A stretch of DNA of 64,000 nucleotides. It comes from an uncultured Rivularia sp. Lineage in GTDB: Bacteria > Cyanobacteriota > Cyanobacteriia > Cyanobacteriales > Nostocaceae. The position numbers and the translations under genes are program-made. Positions 25,374 through 64,000 of this stretch are shown in pieces; position 1 is the first letter of the stretch, and each line of letters opens with the position of its first letter. The notes under the pieces are model-generated. The model made no database searches, was not told the DNA's origin, and was given only the letters and a program-made list of their open reading frames with translations. The DNA is taken from contig OY762007.1 of the NCBI GenBank assembly GCA_963665115.1, positions 2,880,001-2,944,000 of the forward strand. Reading direction: 5' to 3'.

Positions 25374-26541
25374 ATGAAATTCCGTTTTTACAATCCTTCA
25401 ATGTTATCCCAGATAAAAGTGCGCCATTGGTGGCTCGGAGTACTGTTGTGGATGTTTTTGATTGTCCCTGCACAAGCATCGGTAATTATGCGCGTGGCAA
25501 TTAAACGGGATGTGAAGCAAGTCAAAGTTGGCAGCTCCACAGCTGCGGTTATCAAAGATGGTAGCGGAAATTCATTAGGAGAATTACCAGCTAGAGAAGC
25601 TTACTACGCTCAAGCAGTTTCCGGTGGAGTCGCTCTAAATAAATGGAAATCTCCTTTATTCTGGATTGAACCTAAAGGTAAAGGATTTGTTTATATAGGC
25701 GATAAGTGGTATCGGGGTAGAACCTTAGTTATTCCTACAGAAAAAGGACTAACCGCAGTTAACTGGGTTGATTTAGAAGAATATCTCTACAGCGTTTTAG
25801 GTGGCGAAATGGATGCGAGATGGCATCCCGAAGCCCTTAAAGCTCAAGCCATAGCTGCTCGTAGTTACGCCCTTTACAGAAGGCAGAAACAGCAATCTAA
25901 TCCTTTATATGATGTCGGAGCTTCCCCCGATAAATGGCAGATTTACTCAGGAGTTGCTAGGGAACATCCCAAAATTTACGGCGCAGTAGATGCCACAGCA
26001 GGGCAAGTATTAACCCATAACAATCAAATTATTGAATCAGTATTTCATGCTTGTTCTGGCGGGACATACCGAAAACGTAGAAGAAGTTTGGGGTAACAAT
26101 TTACCTTACCTACGCGGGGTTCCGGACTTTGACATGAATACCCCCAATCTTTCTAAAATTGCCCCTAAATGCCAATGGCAAAAAAGTTTTTCATCTGCAC
26201 AAATTGGTAAAAAATTTCCCGAAGTCGGCGATGTCAAGGAAATTAAACCTGTAGAGTGGTCAAAATTTAACAGCGTGAAAAAATTAGAGATTATTGGTGA
26301 AAAAGGCACTAAAGAGTTAAAAGGAGAGCAAGTTCGTACCGCACTCAAGCTCAACAGCACCCGCTTCGTCGTTAGTAAAGCTGAAAATGGTTCATTCGTA
26401 TTGCAAGGGCGTGGTTGGGGACATGGTTTAGGAATGAGTCAATATGGAGCAAGATATTTAGCCAGCCAAGGCTACAACCATCTACAAATTTTGAATCATT
26501 ATTATAAGAATGTCGCTTTAGCGCCGATTGAAGTTAAGTAA
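25374..26541 (+). CDS. SpoIID/LytB domain protein; +1 frameshift at GGG 26061-26063
   Basis: LEEYL, EALKAQAIAARSY and GHGLGMSQYGA motifs; removing one G restores ACSGGHTENVEEVW. Confidence 0.88.
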
Positions 26542-28244: not shown

Positions 28245-29178
28245 TTACCGTCTTCTCGGTACTTCATAGGTCATGAAGTCATAAGCCATTTTGGTGTTGG
28301 GGAAAATTGCTTGACCTTCTTCAAGTAAGTCTTTTAGTTCAATGGCATTTCCTGGGGCGTAACGAGGGCTAAAATGACTCATGATTAAGTTTCGTGCGCC
28401 TGCTGCTAAAGCCGTTTGCGCTGCCATTGTGGATGTGGAATGCAGTCTATCGAAAGCCATTTGCGAATCTTGATGGGCAAAAGTGGCTTCGTGAATCAAT
28501 ACGTCGGCATCTTTTGCTAAGTCAACTGCATTTTCACAGAAAACCGTGTCGGTACAATAGGCTACTTTACGCCCAATTTCTGTGGGGGCCGCATAAGTCG
28601 GAACCGTTGATAACTCTTCCATCTTTTAAAGTTACGGTTTCACCACGTTTGAGTTGGCCGTAAATTCTACCTGCCGGAATTTCTAAGGCTTTGGCTTTCT
28701 CTACATCAAATCTTCCCGCTCGGTTTTTTTCTTCTATACGATAGCCATAAGCTGTAATTCTGTGATGCAAAATATCGCAGCTAACTTTGAATTCGGAATC
28801 TTCATAAACTACCCCCGGACGAACAGCATGAACTTTCACCGGGTAAGAAAAGTGGGTATGAGAATAACGCCTACAGGCTTGCAAATATTCGTTTAAACCT
28901 TGCGGCCCATAAATATCAACGCGACGTACATTCCCAGCCAAACCGCAACTAGCAAGCAAGCCCATCAAGCCAAATATATGGTCGCCATGCATATGGGTAA
29001 CAAAAATTCGGGAGAGTTGACTCATTTTTAAGTCACTCCGTAATATCTGATGTTGAGTACCTTCACCACAGTCGAATAACCATAGTTCTGCTCTTTGCGG
29101 CAATCTAAGGGCAACACTAGATACATTGCGCGACCTTGTGGGTACCCCAGAACTTGTCCCTAAAAATGTTATCTGCAC
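28245..29178 (-). CDS. rnz: Ribonuclease Z; +1 frameshift in the G5 run at 28584-28588
   Basis: [34 protein letters not shown]; removing one base restores [17 protein letters not shown]. Confidence 0.95.
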
Positions 29179-38654: not shown

Positions 38655-40506
38655 TTACCCATTACCATTAAACTGATGCTGTGTTTGATGATATTTCCAG
38701 AGTTTACCTTTACGATTTAATAATTCCTGATAGCCTCCTTGTTCTACAATTCGTCCATGTTCGAGAACTATAACTTTGTCAGCTTTGAAAATAGTAGAAA
38801 GTCGATGAGCAATTGCGATCGCAGTTCTTCCATAAGCCAATTTTTCTAAAGATTGCTGTACTAAACGCTCGCTGACTGAATCGAGGGCGCTGGTTGCTTC
38901 GTCTAAAATTAAAATTTCTGGATTTCGTAATAAAGCTCTCGCAATCGCTATTCTCTGCCTTTGTCCCCCAGATAAACGTACTCCCCTATCTCCAAGTTTT
39001 GTATCGAAACCTTGGGGTAATTCTGCAATAAATTCCGAAGCGTTTGCGCCTTTAGCTGCTTCTAAAATAGCTTTATCATCTATATCTTCTAAACCGTAAG
39101 CGATATTTTCTCGCACTGAGGTGTTAAAGATAAAAGTATCTTGACTTACCATCGCTATATTGTTCCGCAACGAAACCAAGGCTGTATTCGCGCAAGTCAA
39201 CTCCATCGATTAATATTTTCCCAAAAGTAGGGTCATAAAAACGTACCAATAAATCCGCTAAAGTTGTTTTACCGGAACCGCTAGCACCCACCAAAGCTAC
39301 GGTTTGACCGCGTTCGATGGTTAAATTAATATCGTGCAATACTAATTGATTTTTTTCGTAACCAAAATTGAGATTTACAAGTTCGATAGCTTGCTGTAAA
39401 CCGGGGAATTTTTTTGTACCATCAGCTAAATAAGCTTTATTATCAGTTCTTAAAAGTTCTTCAACGGCTCTTAACGCTCCAGAATTCATCGCTATTACAC
39501 CCCAAGAACTATTCATATGAGCGATAATCGGTAGCAAGCGAAATAACGCAAACAAAAAAGCTAGCAAAGAAACTACATTGAGAATTCCACTCGATATCAA
39601 AGTGGAAACAGCAACTAAAATCATTGCGACTAAAATTGTGGTAGCCAACGCTTCAATTAACGGTTGCAAAAGCCCGCTAATAGTACTAGCCTTCAACCAA
39701 GCACTAGCAAACTTTTGCGCTACCTGATGAAAACGCTTGCTTTCAAATTCTTGAGTCCAAAATGCTTGTACCGTGCGAATACCACCAATGAATTCTGTAG
39801 TTTTTGCTGCTAATTCTCCACCAGCAGATGTCATTTCAAAGCTGGCTTGACGCACTCTACGAATCCAATTTGATGCTGCTGCTGCTAACAGACTAAAAAG
39901 AAGTACTGTAACTATAGTTAATTGCCAAGAAATAACGAACATCGCGCAGGTGTAAGCTATGATTACGCAGCTTTTAGTTACAAAATTAATTAGTTCGTTA
40001 AAAGCAAAGCTTAGATGGCTAACCTCACCAGAAAAAGTATTTATTAATTCTCCCGAACGTTTTTGAGTATAGTATGAAAGACTAAAGCTTTGAAACTGTT
40101 TAAATATTCGTTTGCGGAGAGTATCTACCAATCCAATTTCGCATAATTTAGCGCAGTAACGCCCGAAATAGCTGAAAACTGCCCTCACCCAAACAGTAAA
40201 TAATATTAAACCAGATATACGCCAAATACGTTCTTGAGCAACAGCTTCAGTTCCCAAAAATCGCATATCAAACCATTCAATACCAGTTTGCAACGGTGGC
40301 CGTTCTGGATTAGTTAATCCTTGCAGCAAAGAGGCGATCAAACCGATACCTACTGCTTCTAATGCCGCTGCCATGATTGTAAAAAATACGGCTATCATTG
40401 CAGTGCGTAACAACGGTTGAAATGCCTGTACAATCAGATAGTTTTCTTGCCAAAAACTAGTAGTTACAAAAAATTTGCGAATAGAAATTGGTAGCTTAAT
40501 TTGCAT
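38655..40506 (-). CDS. HepA-like ABC exporter; +1 frameshift near 39180
   Basis: N-terminal TSFWQENYLI and QTGIEWFD resemble HepA; GASGSGKT, LSGGQRQR, DEATSALD. Confidence 0.85.
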
Positions 40507-52587: not shown

Positions 52588-52659
52588 CTGGGGTGCTAGG
52601 ATTCGAACCTAGGAATGGCGAGACCAAAACCCGCTGCCTTACCACTTGGCGACACCCCA
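52588..52659 (-). tRNA. trnQ: tRNA-Gln(UUG)
   Basis: TGGGGTG acceptor stem, GCCAAGTGGTAAGGC D-arm, TTTTGGT anticodon loop, GGTTCGAATCC T-arm. Confidence 0.97.
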
Positions 52660-52986: not shown

Positions 52987-53307
52987 ATGTCATTTAGCAG
53001 GTCAGGCATCAACCTTAGCGTGTTTTTTTTGTCTCTAAAAGATTTTATTTTAGACAGATTCAAGCTGCAAAAGCATAAAACCCATGATTTTACTGAGTGT
53101 GTACCTGGAACAGACTACGTATTTGAAGTTGCAGAAAATCTTACAACAGCTTACATGACAGCGCGGGGTAAAGGTGTCAAAGCTGACGACTATATAGTTT
53201 TACAAATCGGCTCGGAATCTTATCGATATCAAGTAGAACAAATTGACTATTACTCGAACCCACCTGATATGTGGATGGCTTTAATCAAAAAAGTCACGAA
53301 CGATTAA
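52987..53307 (+). CDS. Small hypothetical protein
   Basis: 106-aa ORF, beta-rich. Confidence 0.65.
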   Translation: MSFSRSGINLSVFFLSLKDFILDRFKLQKHKTHDFTECVPGTDYVFEVAENLTTAYMTARGKGVKADDYIVLQIGSESYRYQVEQIDYYSNPPDMWMALIKKVTND

Positions 53308-53902: not shown

Positions 53903-54205
53903 ATGATAACTTCAACAACAGATTCCATGATTTCGGAAAAATCTATAATAGTATCTGTGAAAAATCAAATTTCTTCCGATCTTGGTGGTGAAGCGGTGAT
54001 TTTAAACATGAACACCGGAACTTACCACGGTTTGAATGAAGTGGGTGCTTTTGTATGGAACTTGATTGATCAACCGCAAGTCGTAAAAGATATTCAACAA
54101 AAGCTTTTACAAGAGTACGAAATTGAAGCTTTAATTTGTACTAAAGATTTGTTTGCACTGCTTAACGATTTGCACGGTGAAGGGTTAATTGAAGTTAAGA
54201 ATTAA
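53903..54205 (+). CDS. PqqD-family RiPP recognition element (lasso B1), copy 1
   Basis: QISSDLGGEAVILN...YHGLNEVGAFVWNLI; RBS-like AAAGGAAG before the ATG at 53903. Confidence 0.92.
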   Translation: MITSTTDSMISEKSIIVSVKNQISSDLGGEAVILNMNTGTYHGLNEVGAFVWNLIDQPQVVKDIQQKLLQEYEIEALICTKDLFALLNDLHGEGLIEVKN

Positions 54206-54645
54206 ACGCCTGTGTAATTGTTTTAAATTTCTAGGTGTAATAGGTGCTTTCGATTAACTTCCGTATTTTACTTTCAGTTATCAGATTAGATTAGAACTGT
54301 GGTTTCTACCGTTTCGAGTTTTATTAAAAAAAGTTAGTTTACTCAAACTGTATTTAGGTCACGTATATTAAACCAAATTTCTGTCAGTAAAGTTATTTCG
54401 GCTGTAAATATAGCTACTTGCTATACACTTAGGCAATCAAAGTATTTCACACTATCGCGTTTACTACTAAGGTGTTGATGAGTCGTTGTGCTTGTCTTCT
54501 TGAACTTACAGGTATTATTTTCTGAGTAAGTAAAACTTTCTGGCTCATGCTGGGATTAAATACAAGAAAAGGGTTGTAATTAATTCCGTAAGTAAACCTT
54601 TAACGATTTATCTCACTACCATCTCTCGAAGGAATCAGATTATGA
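54195..54645 (+). pseudogene. Decayed lasso leader peptidase (B2)
   Basis: Fragments IRLELWFLPFRVLLK, SKVISAVNIATCY, AFTTKVLMS, AHAGIKY and ISLPSLEGIRL match the intact B2 at 60919; same ATGA overlap with the cyclase. Confidence 0.85.
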
Positions 54646-56672
54646 GCGGTATCGTAGGTATTTGCTACCTGGATAAAAGTCCTGTAGAACAACAAAATAT
54701 AGCGCGAATGATTGATACATTGGCGCATCGGGGACCTGATGGTGCAGACATCTGGGTAGATGGTTCTGTGGGCTTAGGACACCGGATGTTATGGACTACT
54801 CCTGAGTCTTTGATAGAAAAACTGCCTTTAGTCAATCAAAGGGGCGATATAGTTCTTACTTCTGATTGTCGCATAGATAATCGCGAAGAGTTGATTGCTG
54901 CATTACAGTTAAATAATCGTTCCTCCGAGAAAATTACTGATAGTGAATTAGTTCTGGGTGCCTATGAGAAATGGGGTGAAGAATGTCCGGAACATTTGTT
55001 AGGTGATTTTGTCTTTGCCATTTGGGATAAGCGAAAACAGACTTTGTTTTGTGCTAGAGATCATATGGGGGTTAAGCCATTTTATTATTTCCATCAGCCG
55101 GGTAAACTGTTTGCTTTTGGTAGCGAGATAAAAGCGCTGTTATCTTTGCAGGATGTACCGCGAAGGCTGAATGAAATTAAGGTAGGCGACTATCTAGCAT
55201 CAAATTTTCAAGATAAAGTTGAAACCTTTTATCAAGATATCTTTCGTCTTCCACCTGCGAGTTGTTTAACTTTAAATCGGAAAGGATTGCAAATTCGTTC
55301 TTATTGGTCTCTCGATCCAGAGCGCGAATTATGTTTAAGTTCTGATGAGGAGTATGCAGAGGCATTGCAGGAAATCTTTGCAGAATCAGTACGGTGTCGG
55401 TTGCGTAGCGCTTTTCCTGTAGGTTCTCATCTCAGTGGTGGACTGGATTCTTCTTCTGTCACCTGTATGGCACGGAAAATTTTAGAAGAAAAGAATTCTA
55501 AGTTACATACTTTCTCTAATATATTTGATACAGTTACTCAATGTGACGAACGCCCTTTTATCGAAGCTGTACTTGCTCAGGGCGGAATGAATCCTCACTA
55601 CGTCCACGGCGATGAACTCGGACCTCTATCAGACTTAAAACGAATCTTTAAATATCACGACGAAGTATTTTTTGGTCCCACTCATTTTCTAGTTTGGGTA
55701 GCCAACCTTGCAACAGAGAATCAAGGTATCCGAATTGTACTTGATGGCTTTGACGGCGATACCACAATTTCTCACGGTGATGGTTATTTTACCGAACTAG
55801 CACACAAAGGACAATGGGCTGCTTTTGCCAAGCAAGCGAATGATATTGTTCAACGTGCGGGGGGTGGTTCACCTTTAAATATTCTGAGGAGTTCTGGTCT
55901 TACTTATGTAGAAGACTTAGCACGAAAATCAAACTGGCTTGGTTTTGCCAAAGAAACTCGTCAGATATCCAAATACTTTGATATCTCCCAGCAACAGATT
56001 CTTGTGCAACATGGCTTAAAGCCATTGATTCCTGAGTCTGGGCGGCTAGCTTGGCGAAAACTACGCGGACACAATGAGCCGATGCTTAACGCCAATTGGC
56101 TATTTAACCGCAGCTTTGCTCAAAAAATCGGCTTGAAAAAACGTATTAAGGCTTTAGATGAATCTCAGTCTCATCTTCCCGTGACAGAAAGGGAGTATCA
56201 CTGGCGTTATCTAACTTGGGGCTTAGTCGGGTATGCGATGGAGACGTTGGATAAATCATATGCAACCTTTTCAATCGAAGCCCGTCATCCATTCATGGAT
56301 AAACGATTAATTGAATTTTGTCTCTCCTTACCGCCGCAGCAAAAGCTCAACCAAGGATGGACTCGCTTAGTTATGCGCCGTGCCATGCAGAATATTCTTC
56401 CCGAACAAGTGCAGTGGCGACAAACTAAATCTAAAATGACTGCTAGCTTTATACATGGGCTACTCAATCTAAACCGTCAGGTGTTAGATGATTTGATGCA
56501 AAATCACCTTGAGCCAATCGCTACCTACGTAGATATAAATGCTCTGCGTCAAGGCTATGAAAAATTGACATCTAGTAGCAAGATTGGTTCTTATGAAAAT
56601 TCCATATTAATTGAAATATGGAAAGCAGTTACCCTTAGCTTCTGGTTGCGTCACAGCCAGATTGAGTATTAA
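54642..56672 (+). CDS. Lasso peptide isopeptide-bond cyclase (C), copy 1
   Basis: Asparagine-synthetase fold with Ser at position 2 (no catalytic Cys), HRGPDG, LSGGLDSS, GFDGD, R-PF-D. Confidence 0.93.
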   Translation: MSGIVGICYLDKSPVEQQNIARMIDTLAHRGPDGADIWVDGSVGLGHRMLWTTPESLIEKLPLVNQRGDIVLTSDCRIDNREELIAALQLNNRSSEKITDSELVLGAYEKWGEECPEHLLGDFVFAIWDKRKQTLFCARDHMGVKPFYYFHQPGKLFAFGSEIKALLSLQDVPRRLNEIKVGDYLASNFQDKVETFYQDIFRLPPASCLTLNRKGLQIRSYWSLDPERELCLSSDEEYAEALQEIFAESVRCRLRSAFPVGSHLSGGLDSSSVTCMARKILEEKNSKLHTFSNIFDTVTQCDERPFIEAVLAQGGMNPHYVHGDELGPLSDLKRIFKYHDEVFFGPTHFLVWVANLATENQGIRIVLDGFDGDTTISHGDGYFTELAHKGQWAAFAKQANDIVQRAGGGSPLNILRSSGLTYVEDLARKSNWLGFAKETRQISKYFDISQQQILVQHGLKPLIPESGRLAWRKLRGHNEPMLNANWLFNRSFAQKIGLKKRIKALDESQSHLPVTEREYHWRYLTWGLVGYAMETLDKSYATFSIEARHPFMDKRLIEFCLSLPPQQKLNQGWTRLVMRRAMQNILPEQVQWRQTKSKMTASFIHGLLNLNRQVLDDLMQNHLEPIATYVDINALRQGYEKLTSSSKIGSYENSILIEIWKAVTLSFWLRHSQIEY

Positions 56673-56813
56673 AACAGGTGCATCCCCAATATATATCTAA
56701 CTTCTATTTGTATTATTATCTCATTTCTATCTGTACTCTTATTAAAGCGGGGTATTTCCCAAAAGGAGTACCTCTATCGCGAAACACAAACAAAAACCAC
56801 AGGAATTCAAACA

Positions 56814-57005
56814 ATGAAGAAAACTTACGAAGCACCCAAACTCACCAACCACGGTACAGTAGCTCAAATGACCAATTTCTTTGGTAAAGGAGATGGAGAC
56901 ACTTTAATTGGTCCAGGTCCCAATGATGACACAGGTAACCCTGGTGGTTCCATCGATGCTTGTGCAACATTCGACCAGGGCAACTGCTTCGGTAAAGATA
57001 ATTAA
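56814..57005 (+). CDS. Lasso peptide precursor A1
   Basis: Leader YEAPKLTNHG...MTN (YxxPxL, G, Thr-2); Asp8 in the predicted core; directly after the cyclase. Confidence 0.9.
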   Translation: MKKTYEAPKLTNHGTVAQMTNFFGKGDGDTLIGPGPNDDTGNPGGSIDACATFDQGNCFGKDN

Positions 57006-57020
57006 TTAAGTTTATGAAAG

Positions 57021-57368
57021 AAGCAAGCTGTGCAAATTTGACTGCAACTCGAATGTACATTAAAGGCTTACTTCTGACAAATTCAGCATTACCGAACAAG
57101 TTCTAATCTAATATGAGTACAATACTCATGCTTCAGGGAATTCATCTAATTTGATATCTGTATCTACCATCGAGAGTTCAAAGTCTGAATCAATTCACTT
57201 TGATAAAAGACTTTGAACCTCGACACCTAACAAAGCAATGTCGATTAATTCGTACCAATTTATTTGCTTGAGAAGTCAAAGTAAGCAATTGTAAATTCGA
57301 CTGCAACTCGAATGTACATCTAAAACTTAACTCTGACAATTTCAGCATTACCGAACAAGCTCTAATCT
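57021..57368. repeat. ~87-bp imperfect direct repeat (57021-57109 and 57283-57368) around a long hairpin
   Basis: Shared GACTGCAACTCGAATGTACAT and TTCAGCATTACCGAACAAG blocks. Confidence 0.85.
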
Positions 57369-57553
57369 GTCCTCAATATAGCATTAATTAATTAAGTTGC
57401 AGGTGTAATTAAATACGTCTGGCTACTGCGTGATGTCTTTTTTTAGAAGTTAATTGAATTTAACATCCTACTTAAGACAGAAAAATCATATTTTTATCTA
57501 AACAATATCCTTACTTTCTACCTCTTAAGCAAGATGTAATTTACCAATTAAAT

Positions 57554-58489
57554 ATGTTCACCTATTCTGCCTACAATCTTCGTATTGACTCTGAAATTTT
57601 CTTCTCCGAACTTGTAACTTCTCAGGAGGACTTAAGCCGAATCGAACAACTACCCCAAATAATCATACAGCAACGTGAAATCAATCGCTCAGAAATTAAA
57701 AATGCGAATGGTGGCGATCGCTTTGTAGGATATTTAGAAATAAATAAATTACAGTCGTGTAGGTTTTTAGTAGAATTTGGTCGCAAGATTGTGATTGAGC
57801 CTGTCTTAGGAATCGCAGACAATATTATTCGTCCCTGTATTCTCGGTCCGATATTTAGCGTACTGCTGAGGCAAAGAGGACTGCTGGTTGTCCATGCTAG
57901 TTGTGTTGGTATTGATGATGAAGCTGTTGCATTCCTTGGAAATTCAGGATGGGGTAAGTCAACCTTGGCTAATGCTTTTTATAACCAAGGATATCCCCTA
58001 CTTACCGATGATGTAATGGCAATTGAGATTAACAAAGGAAATGAAAGCAATGCAATTACTTTTCCTGCTTATCCCTGTGTGAAACTGCTGCCAGATTCGG
58101 CTGCCAGTTTAGGATACGATTTTGAGGAACTAGCTGTAATTAACTCAGGTTTACTCAAGCGTCATAACAGTCTTACTGAAAAATTTGTACAAAAGCCTTT
58201 ACCCGTCAAGCGAATATACGCATTAGAAAATATTGCAGCCCCTCGTCATGAAGTGCAAACGCTTTCTTCTCAAGATGCACTTGTAGAATTGGTTCGTCAT
58301 TCTCGTGTTACGAATTTATTGACTACTCCTGAATTCACTAGTGCTCATTTGCATCAATGTACGCAACTGATAAAAAAAGTACCTGTTTATCGTTTGAGAA
58401 GACAAAAAACGCTAGCCGCACTTCCCGATTTAGTAAAACTTATAGAAGATGACGTTGCCAAAAGTAATCGTGTAATATCATATACCTAA
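57554..58489 (+). CDS. HPr-kinase-like lasso peptide kinase, copy 1
   Basis: HAS, GNSGWGKST Walker A, LTDD. Confidence 0.85.
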   Translation: MFTYSAYNLRIDSEIFFSELVTSQEDLSRIEQLPQIIIQQREINRSEIKNANGGDRFVGYLEINKLQSCRFLVEFGRKIVIEPVLGIADNIIRPCILGPIFSVLLRQRGLLVVHASCVGIDDEAVAFLGNSGWGKSTLANAFYNQGYPLLTDDVMAIEINKGNESNAITFPAYPCVKLLPDSAASLGYDFEELAVINSGLLKRHNSLTEKFVQKPLPVKRIYALENIAAPRHEVQTLSSQDALVELVRHSRVTNLLTTPEFTSAHLHQCTQLIKKVPVYRLRRQKTLAALPDLVKLIEDDVAKSNRVISYT

Positions 58490-58583
58490 AAAAACTTGTT
58501 GTAAGCTAACTTAGCTACTTGCTAGAGATAACTTATTTGAAGTTTAATAACTAATTTCTGTATCGATAAAAACTATTCCAACA

Positions 58584-60398
58584 ATGCAAGCAGGCAAATT
58601 AAAAGAAAAATTCCAAAGTACGCAACGCCTATTGCCTGCTTTGCGACTGGTTTGGCAAAGTAGCCCTCGCTGGACGATCGCCCGCGTAGTAATTTTGATT
58701 GTTCAAGGTATTCTGCCTGTAGTGGGAATTTATCTGGGCAAACTAATTATAGATACAGTAGCAGCCAGCCTCACTACTGCCGATAAAACCGCAGCTTTTA
58801 ATAATGTAATATTTTTCGTTATCTTAGCAGCAGCAATCGCCCTATTAACTAACCTTGCTAACTCCCTCGGACAATTAGTTACTACCGCTCATTCCCAGCG
58901 AGTAACCGATTATATGCAGGGAATTATTCAAGCGAAATCAATTGCGGCAGATTTAGAATACTACGAAAATCCCGTATACTACGACGTATTACAAAGAGCG
59001 CAACAAGAAGCGCCTTACCGACCTCCGCAAATCCTAAATCGTTTGGCACAGGTTGGTCAAAATGCGATTACTTTAGTTGGGATGATTGCTTTACTGCTGT
59101 CGCTGCACTGGGGAATACCCGGTGTTCTTTTTGTTGCATCCTTTCCGGCTATGGTAGTGCGAGTAAAATATTCTCAGATAATGTATCGCTGGCAGCGCAA
59201 AAAAACACCAATGGAACGTCAGGCAGCTTACTTGGGCTATATGCTGACGGTAGACCAGTTTGCTAAAGAAATTCGTTTATTTAATTTAGGTTCTCACTTC
59301 TCTCAAGCGTATCTTCGCATCCGCAAACAGATATATAAAGAAAGTCTTGCGATTCTAACCGGACGTTCTTTAGCTAGTTTTGCAGTTGAGGCGATCGCCG
59401 CTATTTTAATTTTTGCAATTTATTCTTATATTATTTATCAAACTATCAACGGTGTGCTGCGTTTGGGGGATTTAGTCCTGTACTATCAAGCGTTGCAGCG
59501 GGGACAGGGCAATATCAAAGGTTTATTGAACAGTTTATCTGGACTTTATGAGGATAACTTGTTTCTGGCGAATCTCTACGAATTCCTTGATATTAAACCC
59601 AAGTTAATCGATCCTCCCAACCCCGAACCAATTCCTCATCCAATGAAAACTGGGATTGAATTTAAAAATGTCGGTTTTCAATATTCCACAACTACCCGTC
59701 AGGCACTTAAAAATATTAACCTGACAATTAAACCTGGGGAAGTAGTAGCCTTGGTGGGGGAAAATGGTTCAGGTAAAACTACTTTAATTAAACTTTTATG
59801 TAGATTGTACGACCCTACCGAAGGCAGAATTACCATCGATGGTATCGATCTAAGTCAATTTAAAACTGAAGAATTACGCCGTCAAATCAGCGTGATTTTT
59901 CAAGACTATGCAAAATATCACTTTACTGCTCAGGAAAATATTTGGTTGGGAAACATAGATTTACCACCGCAAAGCGACAGCATCATTAAAGCAGCACGGC
60001 GTTCTGGTGCGGATGATGTAATAAAAAAATTACCCAAAGGTTACGATACCATCTTGGGTAAATTATTTGACAAAGGCGAAGAACTTAGTATTGGACAGTG
60101 GCAAAAAGTTGCTTTAGCGCGGGCATTTTTGCGAGATTCCCAGCTAATTGTTTTGGATGAACCCACCAGCGCAATGGACCCCAAAGCAGAATATGAAGTG
60201 TTTGAAAAGTTCCGCCAATTAATTAAAAATCAATCCGCGATTTTGATTAGCCATCGCTTATCTACCGTGAAAATGGCCGATCGGATATACGTCATGGATA
60301 ATGGAACAATTGTCGAAGGTGGTACCCATCAGGAGTTGATGAAGTTGAAGGGTACCTACGCTCATTTGTTTGAAATACAAGCTAGTCAGTATATGTAA
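58584..60398 (+). CDS. ABC transporter, fused permease and ATPase (lasso D)
   Basis: GENGSGKTT, LSIGQWQK, LDEPTS, SHRLST. Confidence 0.93.
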   Translation: MQAGKLKEKFQSTQRLLPALRLVWQSSPRWTIARVVILIVQGILPVVGIYLGKLIIDTVAASLTTADKTAAFNNVIFFVILAAAIALLTNLANSLGQLVTTAHSQRVTDYMQGIIQAKSIAADLEYYENPVYYDVLQRAQQEAPYRPPQILNRLAQVGQNAITLVGMIALLLSLHWGIPGVLFVASFPAMVVRVKYSQIMYRWQRKKTPMERQAAYLGYMLTVDQFAKEIRLFNLGSHFSQAYLRIRKQIYKESLAILTGRSLASFAVEAIAAILIFAIYSYIIYQTINGVLRLGDLVLYYQALQRGQGNIKGLLNSLSGLYEDNLFLANLYEFLDIKPKLIDPPNPEPIPHPMKTGIEFKNVGFQYSTTTRQALKNINLTIKPGEVVALVGENGSGKTTLIKLLCRLYDPTEGRITIDGIDLSQFKTEELRRQISVIFQDYAKYHFTAQENIWLGNIDLPPQSDSIIKAARRSGADDVIKKLPKGYDTILGKLFDKGEELSIGQWQKVALARAFLRDSQLIVLDEPTSAMDPKAEYEVFEKFRQLIKNQSAILISHRLSTVKMADRIYVMDNGTIVEGGTHQELMKLKGTYAHLFEIQASQYM

Positions 60399-60617
60399 GG
60401 TTCGTATTTAGGTTCGTAGTAAGGACTTTAGTCCTCTGGCTTTGGGACTAAAGTCCTTACTACGAACAAAAAAATGATTATATAAAGACGTAACAACGTC
60501 ATTTTAAAGAGTATATAAAGTGTAAAAAAAAACATAGTACTATCACTATATTAAAGACTATATTTAATACAGCAGAGCAAACAAGGCCAACCAACTAGCA
60601 TTCAACAGTTACAGAAA

Positions 60618-60935
60618 ATGACTTATCCACAACCTGACGTGCGCGAAATTGCAGAATCATCAATAGTAGTAGCTGCTGAAGAGCAAATCTCTTCCGACCT
60701 TGGCGGCGAATCAGTTATCCTGAACATGAAAACAGGAGTCTACCACGGTTTAAATGAAGTGGGTGCGCGGGTGTGGGATTTGATTGAGAAGCCAAAAGCT
60801 GTGAAAGAGATCAAACAGGTACTCCTCAAAGAGTACGAAGTTGAGCCAGATGTTTGCACCAACGACCTGTTCTCACTATTAAATAATTTAAAAACCGCAG
60901 GGCTAATTAAAGTAACAAATGAAACTGCTGCGTAA
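60618..60935 (+). CDS. PqqD-family RRE (lasso B1), copy 2
   Basis: QISSDLGGESVILN...YHGLNEVGARVWDLI. Confidence 0.93.
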   Translation: MTYPQPDVREIAESSIVVAAEEQISSDLGGESVILNMKTGVYHGLNEVGARVWDLIEKPKAVKEIKQVLLKEYEVEPDVCTNDLFSLLNNLKTAGLIKVTNETAA

Positions 60936-61356
60936 GCTTTGGAATCTGAGAAAAGTTAATTTTTACTTCTTATTTGTTACTTACTTTTTACTAGGAGCAA
61001 TTCGGTTAGGGTTGCTGTTGCTGGAATTTCGCATCTTATTAAAGATAATAAATAAACTTATTACGATAAATTTGCCACTCCCTAATGCTCGTTTAAGTCA
61101 AATTCTTTGGGGTGTCAATGTTGCAACCCGCTATATGCCAGGTGGTGCAAAGTGTTTAGCAAGAGCTTTAACTACTCAAGTATTGATGAGTCATAGTGGT
61201 TTTCCCCCGGAATTGTGCATAGGGGTTGCTAAAGGAGAGAAAGGAGAATTAGAAGCGCACGCTTGGATTAAATATCAGGGATACGTTGTTATCGGTTATC
61301 TACCAGATCTACCACGCTACATTCAACTACCATCCCTTGAAGGAATTAAATTATGA
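60919..61356 (+). CDS. Lasso leader peptidase B2 (transglutaminase-like)
   Basis: CLARAL catalytic Cys; AHAW His motif. Confidence 0.93.
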   Translation: MKLLRKLWNLRKVNFYFLFVTYFLLGAIRLGLLLLEFRILLKIINKLITINLPLPNARLSQILWGVNVATRYMPGGAKCLARALTTQVLMSHSGFPPELCIGVAKGEKGELEAHAWIKYQGYVVIGYLPDLPRYIQLPSLEGIKL

Positions 61357-63281
61357 GCGGCATCGTAGGTATTCACTACTTTGACGAACGTCCTGTAGAC
61401 CGCGAAAACTTAACAAAAATGGTTGATATATTGGCGCATCGCGGCCCAGATGGTGCAGATATCTGGGTTGATGGGTGCGTTGGTTTGGGACACAGGATGT
61501 TATGGACTACTCCCGAATCACTTATAGAAAAGCTACCTTTGGTAAATCAGAGGGGCGATTTAGTAATTACAGCAGATGCTCGGATTGACAATCGCGATGA
61601 ATTGATAGCTGCTTTACAGATAAATAATCGTCCTGCTGATAAGATTACAGATAGCGAGCTGATACTGGCAGCATACGGGAAATGGGGCGAAGATTGCCCA
61701 AAGCATTTATTAGGTGACTTTGCATTTGCGATTTGGGATCGGCGTAAGCAGATGTTATTTTGCGCTAGAGACCATTTTGGGGTGAAGCCTTTCTACTATT
61801 ACTCTGCTAACAATACTTTTGTTTTTGGTAGCGAGATAAAAGCAATCTTTTGTTTACCAGAGGTTCCTCGTGAGATTAATGAGGTAAAAGTTGCTGAGTA
61901 CTTATCTATAGAAACAGACGATAAAAGTATCACTTTTTATAATGACATTTTGCGGCTTCCTCCTGCCTGTAAAATGATTGTAAAGAGTAAAACTGTGGAA
62001 TTACAGTCTTATTGGTCTCTTGATTTTACTCGCGAGTTGCGATTGAGTTCGGACGAAGAATATGCAGATACTTTCCGTAAAATCTTTACTGAAGCAGTAC
62101 GCTGTAGATTGCGTAGCGCTTTTCCTATAGGCTCAATGTTAAGCGGTGGCTTGGATTCTTCGTCTATCACCTGTGTAGCACGGAAGTTCATCGCAGAGAA
62201 AGAAGAAAAAAATAAATTACACACTTTCTCAGCAGTTTTTGATAAAGTAACCGAATGCGATGAGCGTGTTTTTCAAGATGCAGTTCTTGCCCAAGGAAAT
62301 ATTGAACCGCATCACTTTCATGCTGATGGATTCAGTCCTTTAACCGATTTTGAACAAGTTCTTTGGCATCAAGATGAAGCTTATTCTGCTGGTAACTTAT
62401 ATTTAAATTGGAATCTTTATAAACCTGCTAGAAAAAATGGTGTTCGCGTTATTTTAGATGGATTTGATGGAGACAGTACCGTATCTCATGGTTTAGGATA
62501 TTTAACTGAATTAGCCAGTAAGGAGCAATGGTTTCAATTAGCTATACATATAAGAAATTACTGTACAAGAATAGGTAAACCTTGGCAAGAAGACTTATGG
62601 AGTTGGATATGGGTTTATAAAATTAATCCTATTATTTGCAAATCTCGCATTCTTACTAAAGCATGGCGCAAATCACAAAAATTGTTTCAAAAAAATCAAC
62701 TTCAAAAACCAGCTTGGAGAAGATTAATTAATTCAGAATTTGTTAAGCAAATTAACTTAATTGAGCGTCTAAGAAATCAACCAAATCCCCCAACAACCGA
62801 ACGGGAAACACAATACCGTTGTTTGATGGAAGCAGGTATGGTTCGTACTCTGGAAAATTTAGATAGAACAGCAAAAGCATATGGAATTGAACTTCGGTTT
62901 CCTTTCTGGGATAAGCGGCTTATAGAATTCTGTCTATCTTTACCTCCGGAGCAAAAGATATCAAAGGGTTGGACTCGGATGGTAATGCGTCGAGCGATGA
63001 AAGATATCCTACCGCAAAAAGTGCAATGGCGAGTCGGTAAATCAAATATGCATCCAGGATTTGAAAGAGGATTGCTCGAATTTGAGCGATTGCGCTTAGA
63101 GCAAATCATTTTACATAACCCGAAAGTAATTGAAAAGTATGTAAATATCGCTGCCCTACAGCAAGCATATCACCGCTACCTGTCTAAACAAGCAACAGTG
63201 GAAGAAGTTAACTCTATTTGGAAAGCTTTTTCTCTAGCTCTGTGGTTAGAACACAAGAATTTGCCAAAACAGAGCTTGTAA
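61353..63281 (+). CDS. Lasso peptide cyclase (C), copy 2
   Basis: Paralog of 54642; LSGGLDSS, GFDGD, RFPFWD. Confidence 0.93.
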   Translation: MSGIVGIHYFDERPVDRENLTKMVDILAHRGPDGADIWVDGCVGLGHRMLWTTPESLIEKLPLVNQRGDLVITADARIDNRDELIAALQINNRPADKITDSELILAAYGKWGEDCPKHLLGDFAFAIWDRRKQMLFCARDHFGVKPFYYYSANNTFVFGSEIKAIFCLPEVPREINEVKVAEYLSIETDDKSITFYNDILRLPPACKMIVKSKTVELQSYWSLDFTRELRLSSDEEYADTFRKIFTEAVRCRLRSAFPIGSMLSGGLDSSSITCVARKFIAEKEEKNKLHTFSAVFDKVTECDERVFQDAVLAQGNIEPHHFHADGFSPLTDFEQVLWHQDEAYSAGNLYLNWNLYKPARKNGVRVILDGFDGDSTVSHGLGYLTELASKEQWFQLAIHIRNYCTRIGKPWQEDLWSWIWVYKINPIICKSRILTKAWRKSQKLFQKNQLQKPAWRRLINSEFVKQINLIERLRNQPNPPTTERETQYRCLMEAGMVRTLENLDRTAKAYGIELRFPFWDKRLIEFCLSLPPEQKISKGWTRMVMRRAMKDILPQKVQWRVGKSNMHPGFERGLLEFERLRLEQIILHNPKVIEKYVNIAALQQAYHRYLSKQATVEEVNSIWKAFSLALWLEHKNLPKQSL

Positions 63282-63500
63282 AAATATGTATGAAATTTAT
63301 CCTATCAAGAACCCGGTTTTTTTACTAATTACACAACAAAAAAATTATGGTTTGACTAAAAAACCGGGTTTCTTAAGATTTATTAATCCAAGATATCAAT
63401 TTAAATCAAGTTATAGAACGTTTTACTTTACGTCCAATCTTTATATGAAGCGAAATATAATTCGCACCAAAAATCTCGTAAACAATAAGGACTTCAAACT

Positions 63501-63669
63501 ATGAATTCTCAAATTAAAAAGTCTTACATCGCACCTGAATTGACTACTCACGGTAACGTTGAGGAAATCACTTTACAAGGGGTCTTTACAGAATGCAGAT
63601 GTACCTAACGGACCTAATGGCACTGCTAACTGTTTTGCAGGTAGTACAGATCCATCTTGTATCTCATAG
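63501..63669 (+). CDS. Lasso peptide precursor A2, with an apparent +1 frameshift in GGGG at 63579-63582
   Basis: Leader MNSQIKKSYIAPELTTHGNVEEITL. As read it stops at 63608; removing one G gives core QGSLQNADVPNGPNGTANCFAGSTDPSCIS*. Confidence 0.82.
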
Positions 63670-63830
63670 TCTAAGCAATTGCTACTGATAAAAAAGTAGC
63701 TTCTGATTAGGTAAATGACAGGAAGTAGATGTCTATAATATTGGCATCTACTCCCATTCATTTACTCTTACAAACTATAGAGCACAAGTTTTAGCTTATT
63801 AAATAATTGATTCTATTAAAAGAAAAACAA

Positions 63831-64000
63831 ATGTATTTTTATAAAGCATACGGTCTTTTATTTCGCTGTAGCTTTGATTTACCAGAATTTATCACTACTG
63901 AAGAAGCAGAACCTGATGTTGTAATCACTCGGGGTAAGATAGAACATTCTTTTCCCGAGCATATACCCGCCCAAGGCTACTTTTATGCTACAGAAAATGA
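63831..64000 (+). CDS. 5' part of a second HPr-kinase-like lasso kinase
   Basis: MYFYKAYGLLFRCSFDLPEF...PDVVIT resembles MFTYSAYNLRIDSEIFFSEL of copy 1; same position after the precursor. Confidence 0.7.
   Translation, partial: MYFYKAYGLLFRCSFDLPEFITTEEAEPDVVITRGKIEHSFPEHIPAQGYFYATEN

Follow-up and report, generated by a model that had tools for sequence, protein, structure and literature searches.

The closest described counterparts of the locus treated here are the clusters for pseudomycoidin (psmCAKB1B2ND) and paeninodin, which combine a split B1/B2 pair, an HprK-like kinase with the set His-Lys-Asp-Asp, a nucleotidyltransferase and an ABC exporter (PMC6993621; PMC9266682), and for which a route through the kinase and the nucleotidyltransferase PsmN is documented (PMC6993621). 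The Bsf cluster of Bradymonas (PMC10368454) and the LPP clusters of Bacillota (PMC13381572) likewise join an NTP transferase and an ABC gene to a kinase acting on a non-terminal serine, Ser3 in the case of both BsfK and LppK. LPP and paeninodin clusters lie in capsular-polysaccharide loci and coexist as two pathways with similar leaders, and the role of the Bacillota clusters is called unknown (PMC13381572). For cyanobacteria, lasso clusters are modelled in NCBIfam (NF033535, NF033528, NF033536, NF033537) and one is described in silico only (PMC9332814), a 2026 review has no word starting with 'cyanobacter' (PMC13352647), and titles and abstract openings in the literature yielded neither a characterised cyanobacterial lasso peptide nor a report of cassette exchange in lasso clusters, although genome-mining supplements may list these precursors. 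The locus described here lies at the 3' end of a stretch of 64,000 nucleotides from an uncultured Rivularia sp. (assembly GCA_963665115.1, contig OY762007.1, positions 2,880,001 to 2,944,000), referred to below as the window.

The genes of this locus run in the order B1-(dead B2)-C-A-kinase-ABC-B1-B2-C-A-kinase-nucleotidyltransferase, all on the + strand, so that two cyclase-precursor-kinase sets, called slot 1 and slot 2, are arranged around one intact protease, exporter and nucleotidyltransferase. The locus likely directs the synthesis of two phosphorylated lasso peptides, and the block specifying each of them appears to be exchanged between strains. Taken singly, the genes are unremarkable members of a family that NCBIfam already models; what is new is the two-slot design with its shared protease, the repeated crossover within the cyclase gene and the internal phosphosite predicted here. 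In window coordinates, the features are:

53903..54205, + strand: B1a, RRE protein (PqqD family) of slot 1 (PF05402, E 1.7e-18; NF033536, 77.1 bits)
54201..54645, + strand: decayed remnant of B2, the leader peptidase, in slot 1 (DNA alignment to B2)
54642..56672, + strand: C1, lasso cyclase of 676 amino acids (aa) (NF033535, 1029.8 bits)
56814..57005, + strand: A1 precursor (NF033528, 42 bits, cut-off 33)
57031..57368, + strand: non-coding tandem unit of ~250 bp, with a 79-bp direct repeat at both ends (87%)
57554..58489, + strand: K1, HprK-like kinase (PF07475, weak)
58584..60398, + strand: single ABC exporter, part of the backbone and right border of cassette 1
60618..60935, + strand: B1b, RRE protein of slot 2 (PF05402; NF033536, 81.6 bits)
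60919..61356, + strand: B2, intact leader peptidase with Cys78 and His113 (NF033537, 93 bits)
61353..63281, + strand: C2, lasso cyclase of 642 aa (NF033535, 937.3 bits)
63501..63669, + strand: A2 precursor, frameshifted in the window (two frames read separately)
63681..63790, + strand: stem-loops 3' of A2, terminator-like or stabilising (fold z -5.6)
63831..64000, + strand, continuing to window-equivalent 64751: K2, HprK-like kinase of 306 aa (PF07475, weak)
Window-equivalent 64899-66029 (L001:11899-13029): N, PsmN-like nucleotidyltransferase of 376 aa and right border of cassette 2 (PF14907, 221.6 bits)

All core genes match the NCBIfam models, as expected from the lasso machinery named in an earlier reading of this DNA (the original prediction): both cyclases pass the cut-off of NF033535 (525 bits), B2, B1b and A1 also score above those of their models, and B1a lies just below the 80 bits set for NF033536. 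The same reading had proposed two B1-B2-C-A-kinase modules with one ABC exporter between them, in a cluster continuing past the window. Two cyclases, B1s, precursors and kinases were indeed found, the exporter is a single gene, and the rest of kinase 2 followed by the nucleotidyltransferase lies beyond the window's end, but slot 1 has no intact B2; the dead first B2, the frameshift in A2 and the PsmN-like gene had been missed. N has a DxD motif near residue 140, and its likeness to PsmN is one of family match, not of alignment to PsmN itself.

From the NCBIfam cyanobacterial clusters the locus differs in its two slots, its one B2, ABC and N gene, and its mosaic cyclases. In contrast to the pseudomycoidin and paeninodin clusters, it has another gene order, two slots, Cys pairs in the peptide tails and full-length asparagine-synthetase-like cyclases, and both leaders carry YxxP instead of the WxxP motif of that type (PMC13381572); A2 ends in Ser as theirs do, whereas A1 has no terminal Ser. 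The predicted phosphosite of the group to which A1 belongs lies 23-38 residues into the core, compared with Ser3 in Bsf and LPP (PMC10368454; PMC13381572). Furthermore, LPP and paeninodin are insulated from each other by separate RREs and peptidases (PMC13381572), while the two pathways of Rivularia appear to share one peptidase, and the SpI peptidase of LPP clusters has no counterpart in the locus, where two cyclases are present and no further open reading frame (ORF) remains.

A cyclase above the cut-off occurs in 73 of 151 genomes drawn from the host's family and in 18 of 27 genus genomes. Two cyclases 6.5-8 kb apart at the same site were found in nine genomes (G000, G003, G004, G007, G008, G009, G013, G021 and G188), and G016 has both slots on separate short contigs; G012 and G020 are without slot 1, and G010, G011, G017 and G019 have a single B1-B2-C-A-K-ABC module. 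When the locus is compared with ten relatives, identity at the DNA level is mostly 85-97% across B1a, the opening ~450 bp of C1, ABC, B1b, B2, the opening ~500 bp of C2 and N, and it is below 70% or unalignable over ~55100-58500 and ~61850-64890, returning to ~90% at the start of ABC. Exceptions to the low identity are slot 1 of G021, G003 and G008 in part, and slot 2 of G007, which are of the same or a related type. The exporter protein is 90-96% identical in the ten relatives of the lineage, whatever the cassette.

Within the cyclases, residues ~1-150 of C1 and ~1-160 of C2 are fixed to their slot and the remainder belongs to the cassette. C1 has Ser in place of the amidotransferase Cys after Met and an intact SGGLDSS motif. 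An AlphaFold2 model of C2 (pLDDT 78.5) shows an asparagine-synthetase fold matching AsnB and beta-lactam synthetase, with no solved lasso cyclase among the PDB matches listed; its N-terminal beta domain ends at about residue 219 and the ATP-binding synthetase domain starts at about 234, so the exchanged block contains the whole catalytic domain. The two N-parts, which the original prediction took to be near-identical, agree at 78 of the first 100 residues, at 42 of 44 over residues 26-69 and at 79% over residues 1-150. Over these 150 residues same-slot orthologues elsewhere are closer, C1 being 83-94% identical to other slot-1 cyclases and C2 90-95% identical to slot-2 cyclases. With a synonymous divergence (dS) of 1.76 between the two N-parts and separate slot clades, the duplication of the locus must be old, and gene conversion between the C1 and C2 N-termini was rejected on the same two observations.

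The C-terminal parts have another history. In quick LG+G4 trees of 35 of the 74 cyclases, residues 1-150 separate slot 1, slot 2 and the genus each from the remaining sequences by a single branch (Shimodaira-Hasegawa-like approximate likelihood ratio test, SH-aLRT, 92, 88 and 93), whereas for residues 311-670 the three groupings are rejected by the approximately unbiased (AU) test (p-AU 5e-7, 1e-53 and 3e-33), and the C-terminal halves of C1 and C2 fall into deep lineages shared with other genera. Among identical residues, third-position identity shifts at codons 131-181 in 17 of 21 comparisons; it drops from ~0.8 to ~0.5 in 16 of the 21 and from 0.87 to 0.71 at codon 147 for slot 2 of G007, and no drop is seen in the pair sharing the slot-1 type. 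Even genomes with 92-97% identity immediately before codon ~150 are close to synonymous saturation 3' of it. In-place positive selection could not bring about such saturation beyond one fixed position in the gene, which makes recombination the best explanation. Clustering of the C-halves at thresholds of 65-75% gives 11 types in 26 genus modules. The two-slot lineage accounts for 10 C-terminal types in 22 modules, two types occurring in both slots, and its 10 two-slot genomes show nine slot combinations, with G009 and G188 having the same cassette type in both slots. Each type is paired with its own precursor family, and across 73 modules pairwise identity of the kinase follows that of the C-half (rho 0.83), not that of the N-part (rho 0.12). 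A contig of run X4 offers a further example of exchange, its ABC-B2-C2 backbone running into C1-like and K1-like sequence. Exchange of the cyclase C-part, precursor and kinase as a ready-made recombination block is the most likely explanation of these patterns.

The shared protease is the second element of the design. In the 436-bp gap between B1a and C1 lies a remnant whose DNA alignment to the intact B2 scores 141, against 30±4.6 for 200 shuffles; its start codon is gone, each frame contains 7-12 stops, indels are many, and the 3' end retains the ribosome-binding site of C1. None of the nine two-slot genomes has an intact slot-1 B2, the remnant rising clearly above shuffles in seven, marginally in G004 and not in G008. 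The genome of the window has one B2 match and two precursor matches, and a single B2 match genome-wide was found in G000, G003, G007, G016 and G188; the further B2 matches of G004, G008, G009, G013 and G021 lie within frames of 567-595 aa at other loci. Those frames occur within ~12 kb of asparagine-synthetase-like genes of 630-680 aa that score below the cyclase cut-off, and they may mark a second cluster type. Slot 1 is nevertheless under purifying selection, with ratios of nonsynonymous to synonymous divergence (dN/dS) of 0.14 for C1 and 0.23 for K1 relative to G021 and of 0.17-0.38 for B1a relative to five relatives; B1a is kept under selection in seven of the nine genomes, its ORF missing in G008 and G188. 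The Cys and His motifs of B2 are retained in all nine two-slot loci, and the protein is 74-96% identical across genomes with eight different slot-2 cassette types, so B2 must tolerate varied leaders, and because it does, the second copy could decay. Both peptides are likely served by a single set of protease, exporter and nucleotidyltransferase. G094 of another genus offers a separate instance of two cyclases with one protease (B1-B2-C-A-K-ABC-C-A-K-ABC; one B2 in the genome). More generally, a single B1-B2 is accompanied by two cyclase-precursor-kinase sets, or by an orphan pair of precursor and kinase, in L045 (G094), L046, L047-L050 and L072 from other genera.

A1 consists of a 21-aa leader with YxxPxL and Thr(-2), whose dN is 0.02 over 21 codons, and, given cleavage after Thr(-2)-X, a core with a predicted length of 42 aa that contains Phe1, Asp8, Gly-Ser25-Ile-Asp, Cys29 and Cys37 and ends in Asn. 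Asp8, the GSID motif and both cysteines, but not Asp6, are kept in the G021 orthologue and in allele P0002, and no match to A1 was found in plasmids. The intact allele of A2 has a predicted 30-aa core with Gln1, Asp8, Cys19, Cys28 and C-terminal Ser30, the only core Ser retained in the G007 orthologue. Both A1 and intact A2 combine YxxPxL and Thr(-2) with an Asp or Glu at core position 7-9, and their cores differ, which agrees with two different predicted peptides. The Asp8 and Cys pair already noticed in the original prediction occur in both cores under the cut assumed here, for A2 only in the intact allele. In the window, A2 has one extra base in the G run at 63579-63582 and reads as a 10-residue core without acceptor residue. 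Contigs of runs X1 and X3 are without one base at 63579, run X2 (depth 205, 3084 letters, no gap) matches the window, and the three runs, all from one study, show no other difference over the stretch; the contigs of run X4 do not cover the G run. The A2 orthologue of G007 is one base shorter at the run and ends in the same downstream frame. In the same window three housekeeping genes, for SpoIID/LytB (25374-26541), RNase Z (28245-29178) and HepA (38655-40506), are each broken into two successive halves as well, which points to probable assembly indel errors, and an assembly or platform error is the likelier source of the A2 frameshift than a real allele in one sample. Phase variation is unlikely, as the run has only 3-4 bases and is absent from the orthologue. 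Elsewhere (L040, L043, L046, L056, L060, L075, L078) some precursors have no Asp or Glu at positions 7-9, several having Asp10, which would mean larger rings, and L038:10416-11538, in a genome of another family, contains five near-identical copies of an A2-related precursor.

His114, GxxGxGKS and Asp152-Asp153 are invariant in all 12 aligned kinases, K1 and K2 included, and the His, the P-loop Lys and the Asp-Asp pair are the residues named as catalytic in PMC9266682 and PMC10368454; a PDB search with the kinase gave no match under E 0.1. The kinases, some of which are split in relatives and were read through with X, separate into a K1 clade (support 99) and the rest. With the window's frameshifted A2 left out, as well as any module in which kinase or precursor is missing, Gly-Ser-x-Asp (GSxD) follows the ring in 47 of 63 K1-clade precursors, against a mean of 2.1 and a maximum of 8 in 1000 shuffles, and one of the 63 ends in Ser; among the precursors of other kinases 23 of 32 end in Ser, and 29 of 32 in Ser or in Ser plus Gly, Leu or Gly-Thr-Phe. 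In all 10 genomes slot 1 holds a K1-clade cassette. Cores that vary in length and can hardly be aligned elsewhere still retain GSxD, which indicates that the motif is functional, and the GSxD of A1 is likely an internal phosphosite; it would be one not yet described, in the largest cyanobacterial clade sampled. The paeninodin-type phosphorylation to which the original prediction referred takes place at a C-terminal Ser and fits A2 (Ser30) but not A1, which ends in Asn.

Several points count against this account. The product, its threading and its modification are predictions, and at 42 residues the predicted core of A1 is long. Slot 2 may be inactive in the assembled sample, given that run X2 has the A2 frameshift as well. 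Pseudomycoidin is made without B1/B2 (PMC6993621), which would leave the sharing of B2 unforced. GSxD is also found in six of the 32 precursors of other kinases and in the A2 sequence, and its association with the kinase clade amounts to about one evolutionary event (3 independent pairs, p 0.25; 13 of 73 kinases, short or without precursor, left out of the test). The block is not always moved whole either: three of the 21 comparisons break at codons 340-342, in the 26 genus modules rho between C-half and kinase is only 0.57 (N-part 0.36), two cassette types share one kinase lineage (~80% identity), and in slot 2 of G016 the kinase groups with G021 and the cyclase with G013. Such exceptions indicate extra crossovers within the block. 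Finally, only 36 of 64 loci have a polysaccharide-type neighbour (Wzc-, Wzy- or glycosyltransferase-like) within the stretch examined.

The history first proposed for this locus, tandem duplication followed by in-place divergence of the two cyclases towards two substrates, was right about the duplication, which is old, and is in keeping with some slot bias, namely the K1-clade cassettes in slot 1 of 10 of 10 genomes; as a mechanism it is largely refuted and very improbable, because slot clades are rejected for the C-halves, which group with those of other genera, synonymous change approaches saturation past codon ~150, and cassette types occur in either slot, in G009 and G188 even in both. A different view of the dead B2 would be that slot 1 needs none, its leader being removed by a host protease or its cyclase acting independently of B proteins as in pseudomycoidin. 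In PMC6993621 a lasso peptide forms in the absence of B1/B2, and a cyanobacterial cluster that has no B genes is named; B1a is lost as well in G008 and G188, but A1 retains a canonical YxxPxL...Thr(-2) leader with hardly any amino acid change, B1a is under selection in the seven other genomes, and two slot-1 cassette types also sit in slot 2 directly behind the intact B2, which makes this view improbable. The frameshift in A2 raises the question whether only slot 1 works in this strain; the agreement of run X2 at a depth of 205 gives a true loss-of-function allele a real if lesser chance, set against runs X1 and X3, which are letter-identical over the stretch except for the extra base, the three housekeeping genes likewise split, and the intact C2 and K2.

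For GSxD, a role as a cyclase-recognition element, or as a trimming site that exposes a C-terminal Ser so that K1 would modify a terminal Ser in the conventional way once the peptide is cut, is rather unlikely, although the motif travels with the cyclase C-half as well as with the kinase, a cut after its Ser would give cores of 23-38 residues, near the 24-44 of Ser-ending cores, and the C-terminus of a few other-clade precursors lies 1-3 residues beyond a Ser. Trimming is opposed by the fact that the locus encodes no extra protease, by the Cys pair conserved beyond the motif in many K1-clade cores, which argues that the tail stays, and by the action of related kinases on non-terminal Ser (PMC10368454). 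The preferred reading, with phosphorylation within GSxD and exchange of whole blocks, also has to be set against the idea of peptides acting as strain-specific signals or as bacteriocins, in which case the cassettes would be pherotypes or toxin types. The agr and com pherotype loci have conserved flanks and a variable block exchanged by recombination, and the hypervariable block of the Rivularia locus, set between conserved flanks, resembles them. The displacement of Rhs C-termini likewise involves a conserved 5' core, a variable 3' block and homologous recombination with a cross-taxon pool (PMC2935791). In Rivularia, however, the crossover falls within the gene for a biosynthetic enzyme and takes substrate and tailoring enzyme with it. 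Orphan-tip arrays are absent, a cognate gene for immunity or a receptor is absent too, and the exporter is conserved regardless of cassette. No sensor, receptor or immunity gene was found in or beside the block, all ORFs from the upstream 106-aa gene to N being accounted for, and an agr-like cognate sensor kinase is absent from the window locus and the genus loci listed; we consider a signal or bacteriocin unlikely.

Beyond the protein-coding genes, the ~250-bp tandem unit after the precursor is present in 2-4 copies in five of 27 genus genomes, all with slot-1 cassettes of two related types (window 57031-57368, L026, L027, L029 and L030). It forms several hairpins (fold z -3.8, with five of 63 pairs changed on both sides) and may, judging from the predicted fold, be a structured 3' region of the precursor transcript that stabilises its mRNA. 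No Rfam match to it was found at this locus, the fold belongs to the whole unit only, two isolated 79-bp copies folding no better than shuffles (z 0.8 and -1.4), and a small ORF in the 79-bp repeat was rejected because no frame is conserved across five loci. Promoter and terminator patterns are at chance level (for the terminator pattern, 8 hits against 7.1 by chance); one terminator-pattern match lies 3' of A2 at 63681-63700. Palindromic elements at 60406-60480 (>100 genome matches) and 63310-63375 (~20) are dispersed genome-wide.

The locus is flanked by a Wzc-like gene on one side and a convergent block of glycosyltransferase genes on the other. Upstream, the gene for a 106-aa protein (window 52987-53307, + strand), which has no Pfam or NCBIfam match and is a 'hypothetical protein' in Atlas, marks the site in 29 of the 64 loci compared. 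It was rejected as a member of the system, being present in five of five genus genomes without the cyclase, and no lasso genes were found beside it in the four stretches of such genomes that were examined. Just upstream of it, a tRNA-Gln(TTG) (window 52588-52659, - strand) is a possible insertion landmark. The gene next to ABC in G021 encodes a 404-aa fusion of a phosphoribosyltransferase-like domain and an RRE (L026:9186-10400, - strand), and L076 has a 403-aa RRE-containing protein at a similar position; either might be an extra tailoring enzyme. A SAM methyltransferase gene lies 3' of the slot-2 kinase in G003 (L027:14495-15262), with a look-alike in G012 (L036), which has the same cassette type.

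The proposed mechanism builds on features read directly from the DNA, namely the order of the genes, the lost first B2, the purifying selection acting on slot 1, the conflict between the trees of the two cyclase parts and the sharp borders of DNA identity, and borrows its biochemical steps from established lasso biochemistry. The RRE would bind each YxxPxL leader, and the kinases would phosphorylate the precursors, K2 on the terminal Ser30 of A2 and K1 on the internal Ser25 of A1. The single B2 would then cleave both precursors after Thr(-2)-X, each cyclase would couple the new N-terminus (Phe1 or Gln1) to Asp8, and the Cys pair could form a class IV-like disulfide in the tail. N may attach a hexose to the phosphate, as PsmN does, and the ABC transporter would export both peptides. 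As for its history, an old duplication of B1-B2-C-A-K would have produced the two slots, the first B2 (in two genomes the first B1 too) would have decayed because leader processing is promiscuous, and repeated homologous recombination would since have replaced the specificity block from a pool shared with other genera, with the left crossover in the first ~450 bp of the cyclase gene, which are conserved, and the right one in ABC or N.

The weakest step concerns the role of the products, for which we suggest, with low confidence, secreted or surface peptides tied to the sheath-polysaccharide locus and under diversifying selection. A bolder and quite unlikely version is a 'serotype' switch, in which recombination in the cyclase gene loads the slots with at least 10 peptide types, the kinases modify terminal or internal Ser, N makes a sugar-phosphate link and the knotted peptides carry or anchor the sheath polysaccharide whose genes flank the locus on both sides. 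If true, it would give a structural function to phosphorylated lasso peptides, whose role is so far unknown.

How lasso cyclases select their cores is poorly understood (PMC12480086), and the Rivularia loci contain natural hybrids: near-constant N-parts are followed, past a junction at codons ~130-180, by ten different catalytic halves, and each half comes with a peptide of its own. These hybrids predict where specificity lies and supply junctions tested by nature for cyclase swaps. Furthermore, a B2 that is predicted to be broadly tolerant and to cut many leaders would be useful for cell-free lasso production, and the internal motif would provide a predicted phosphosite for a large clade that is chemically unstudied.

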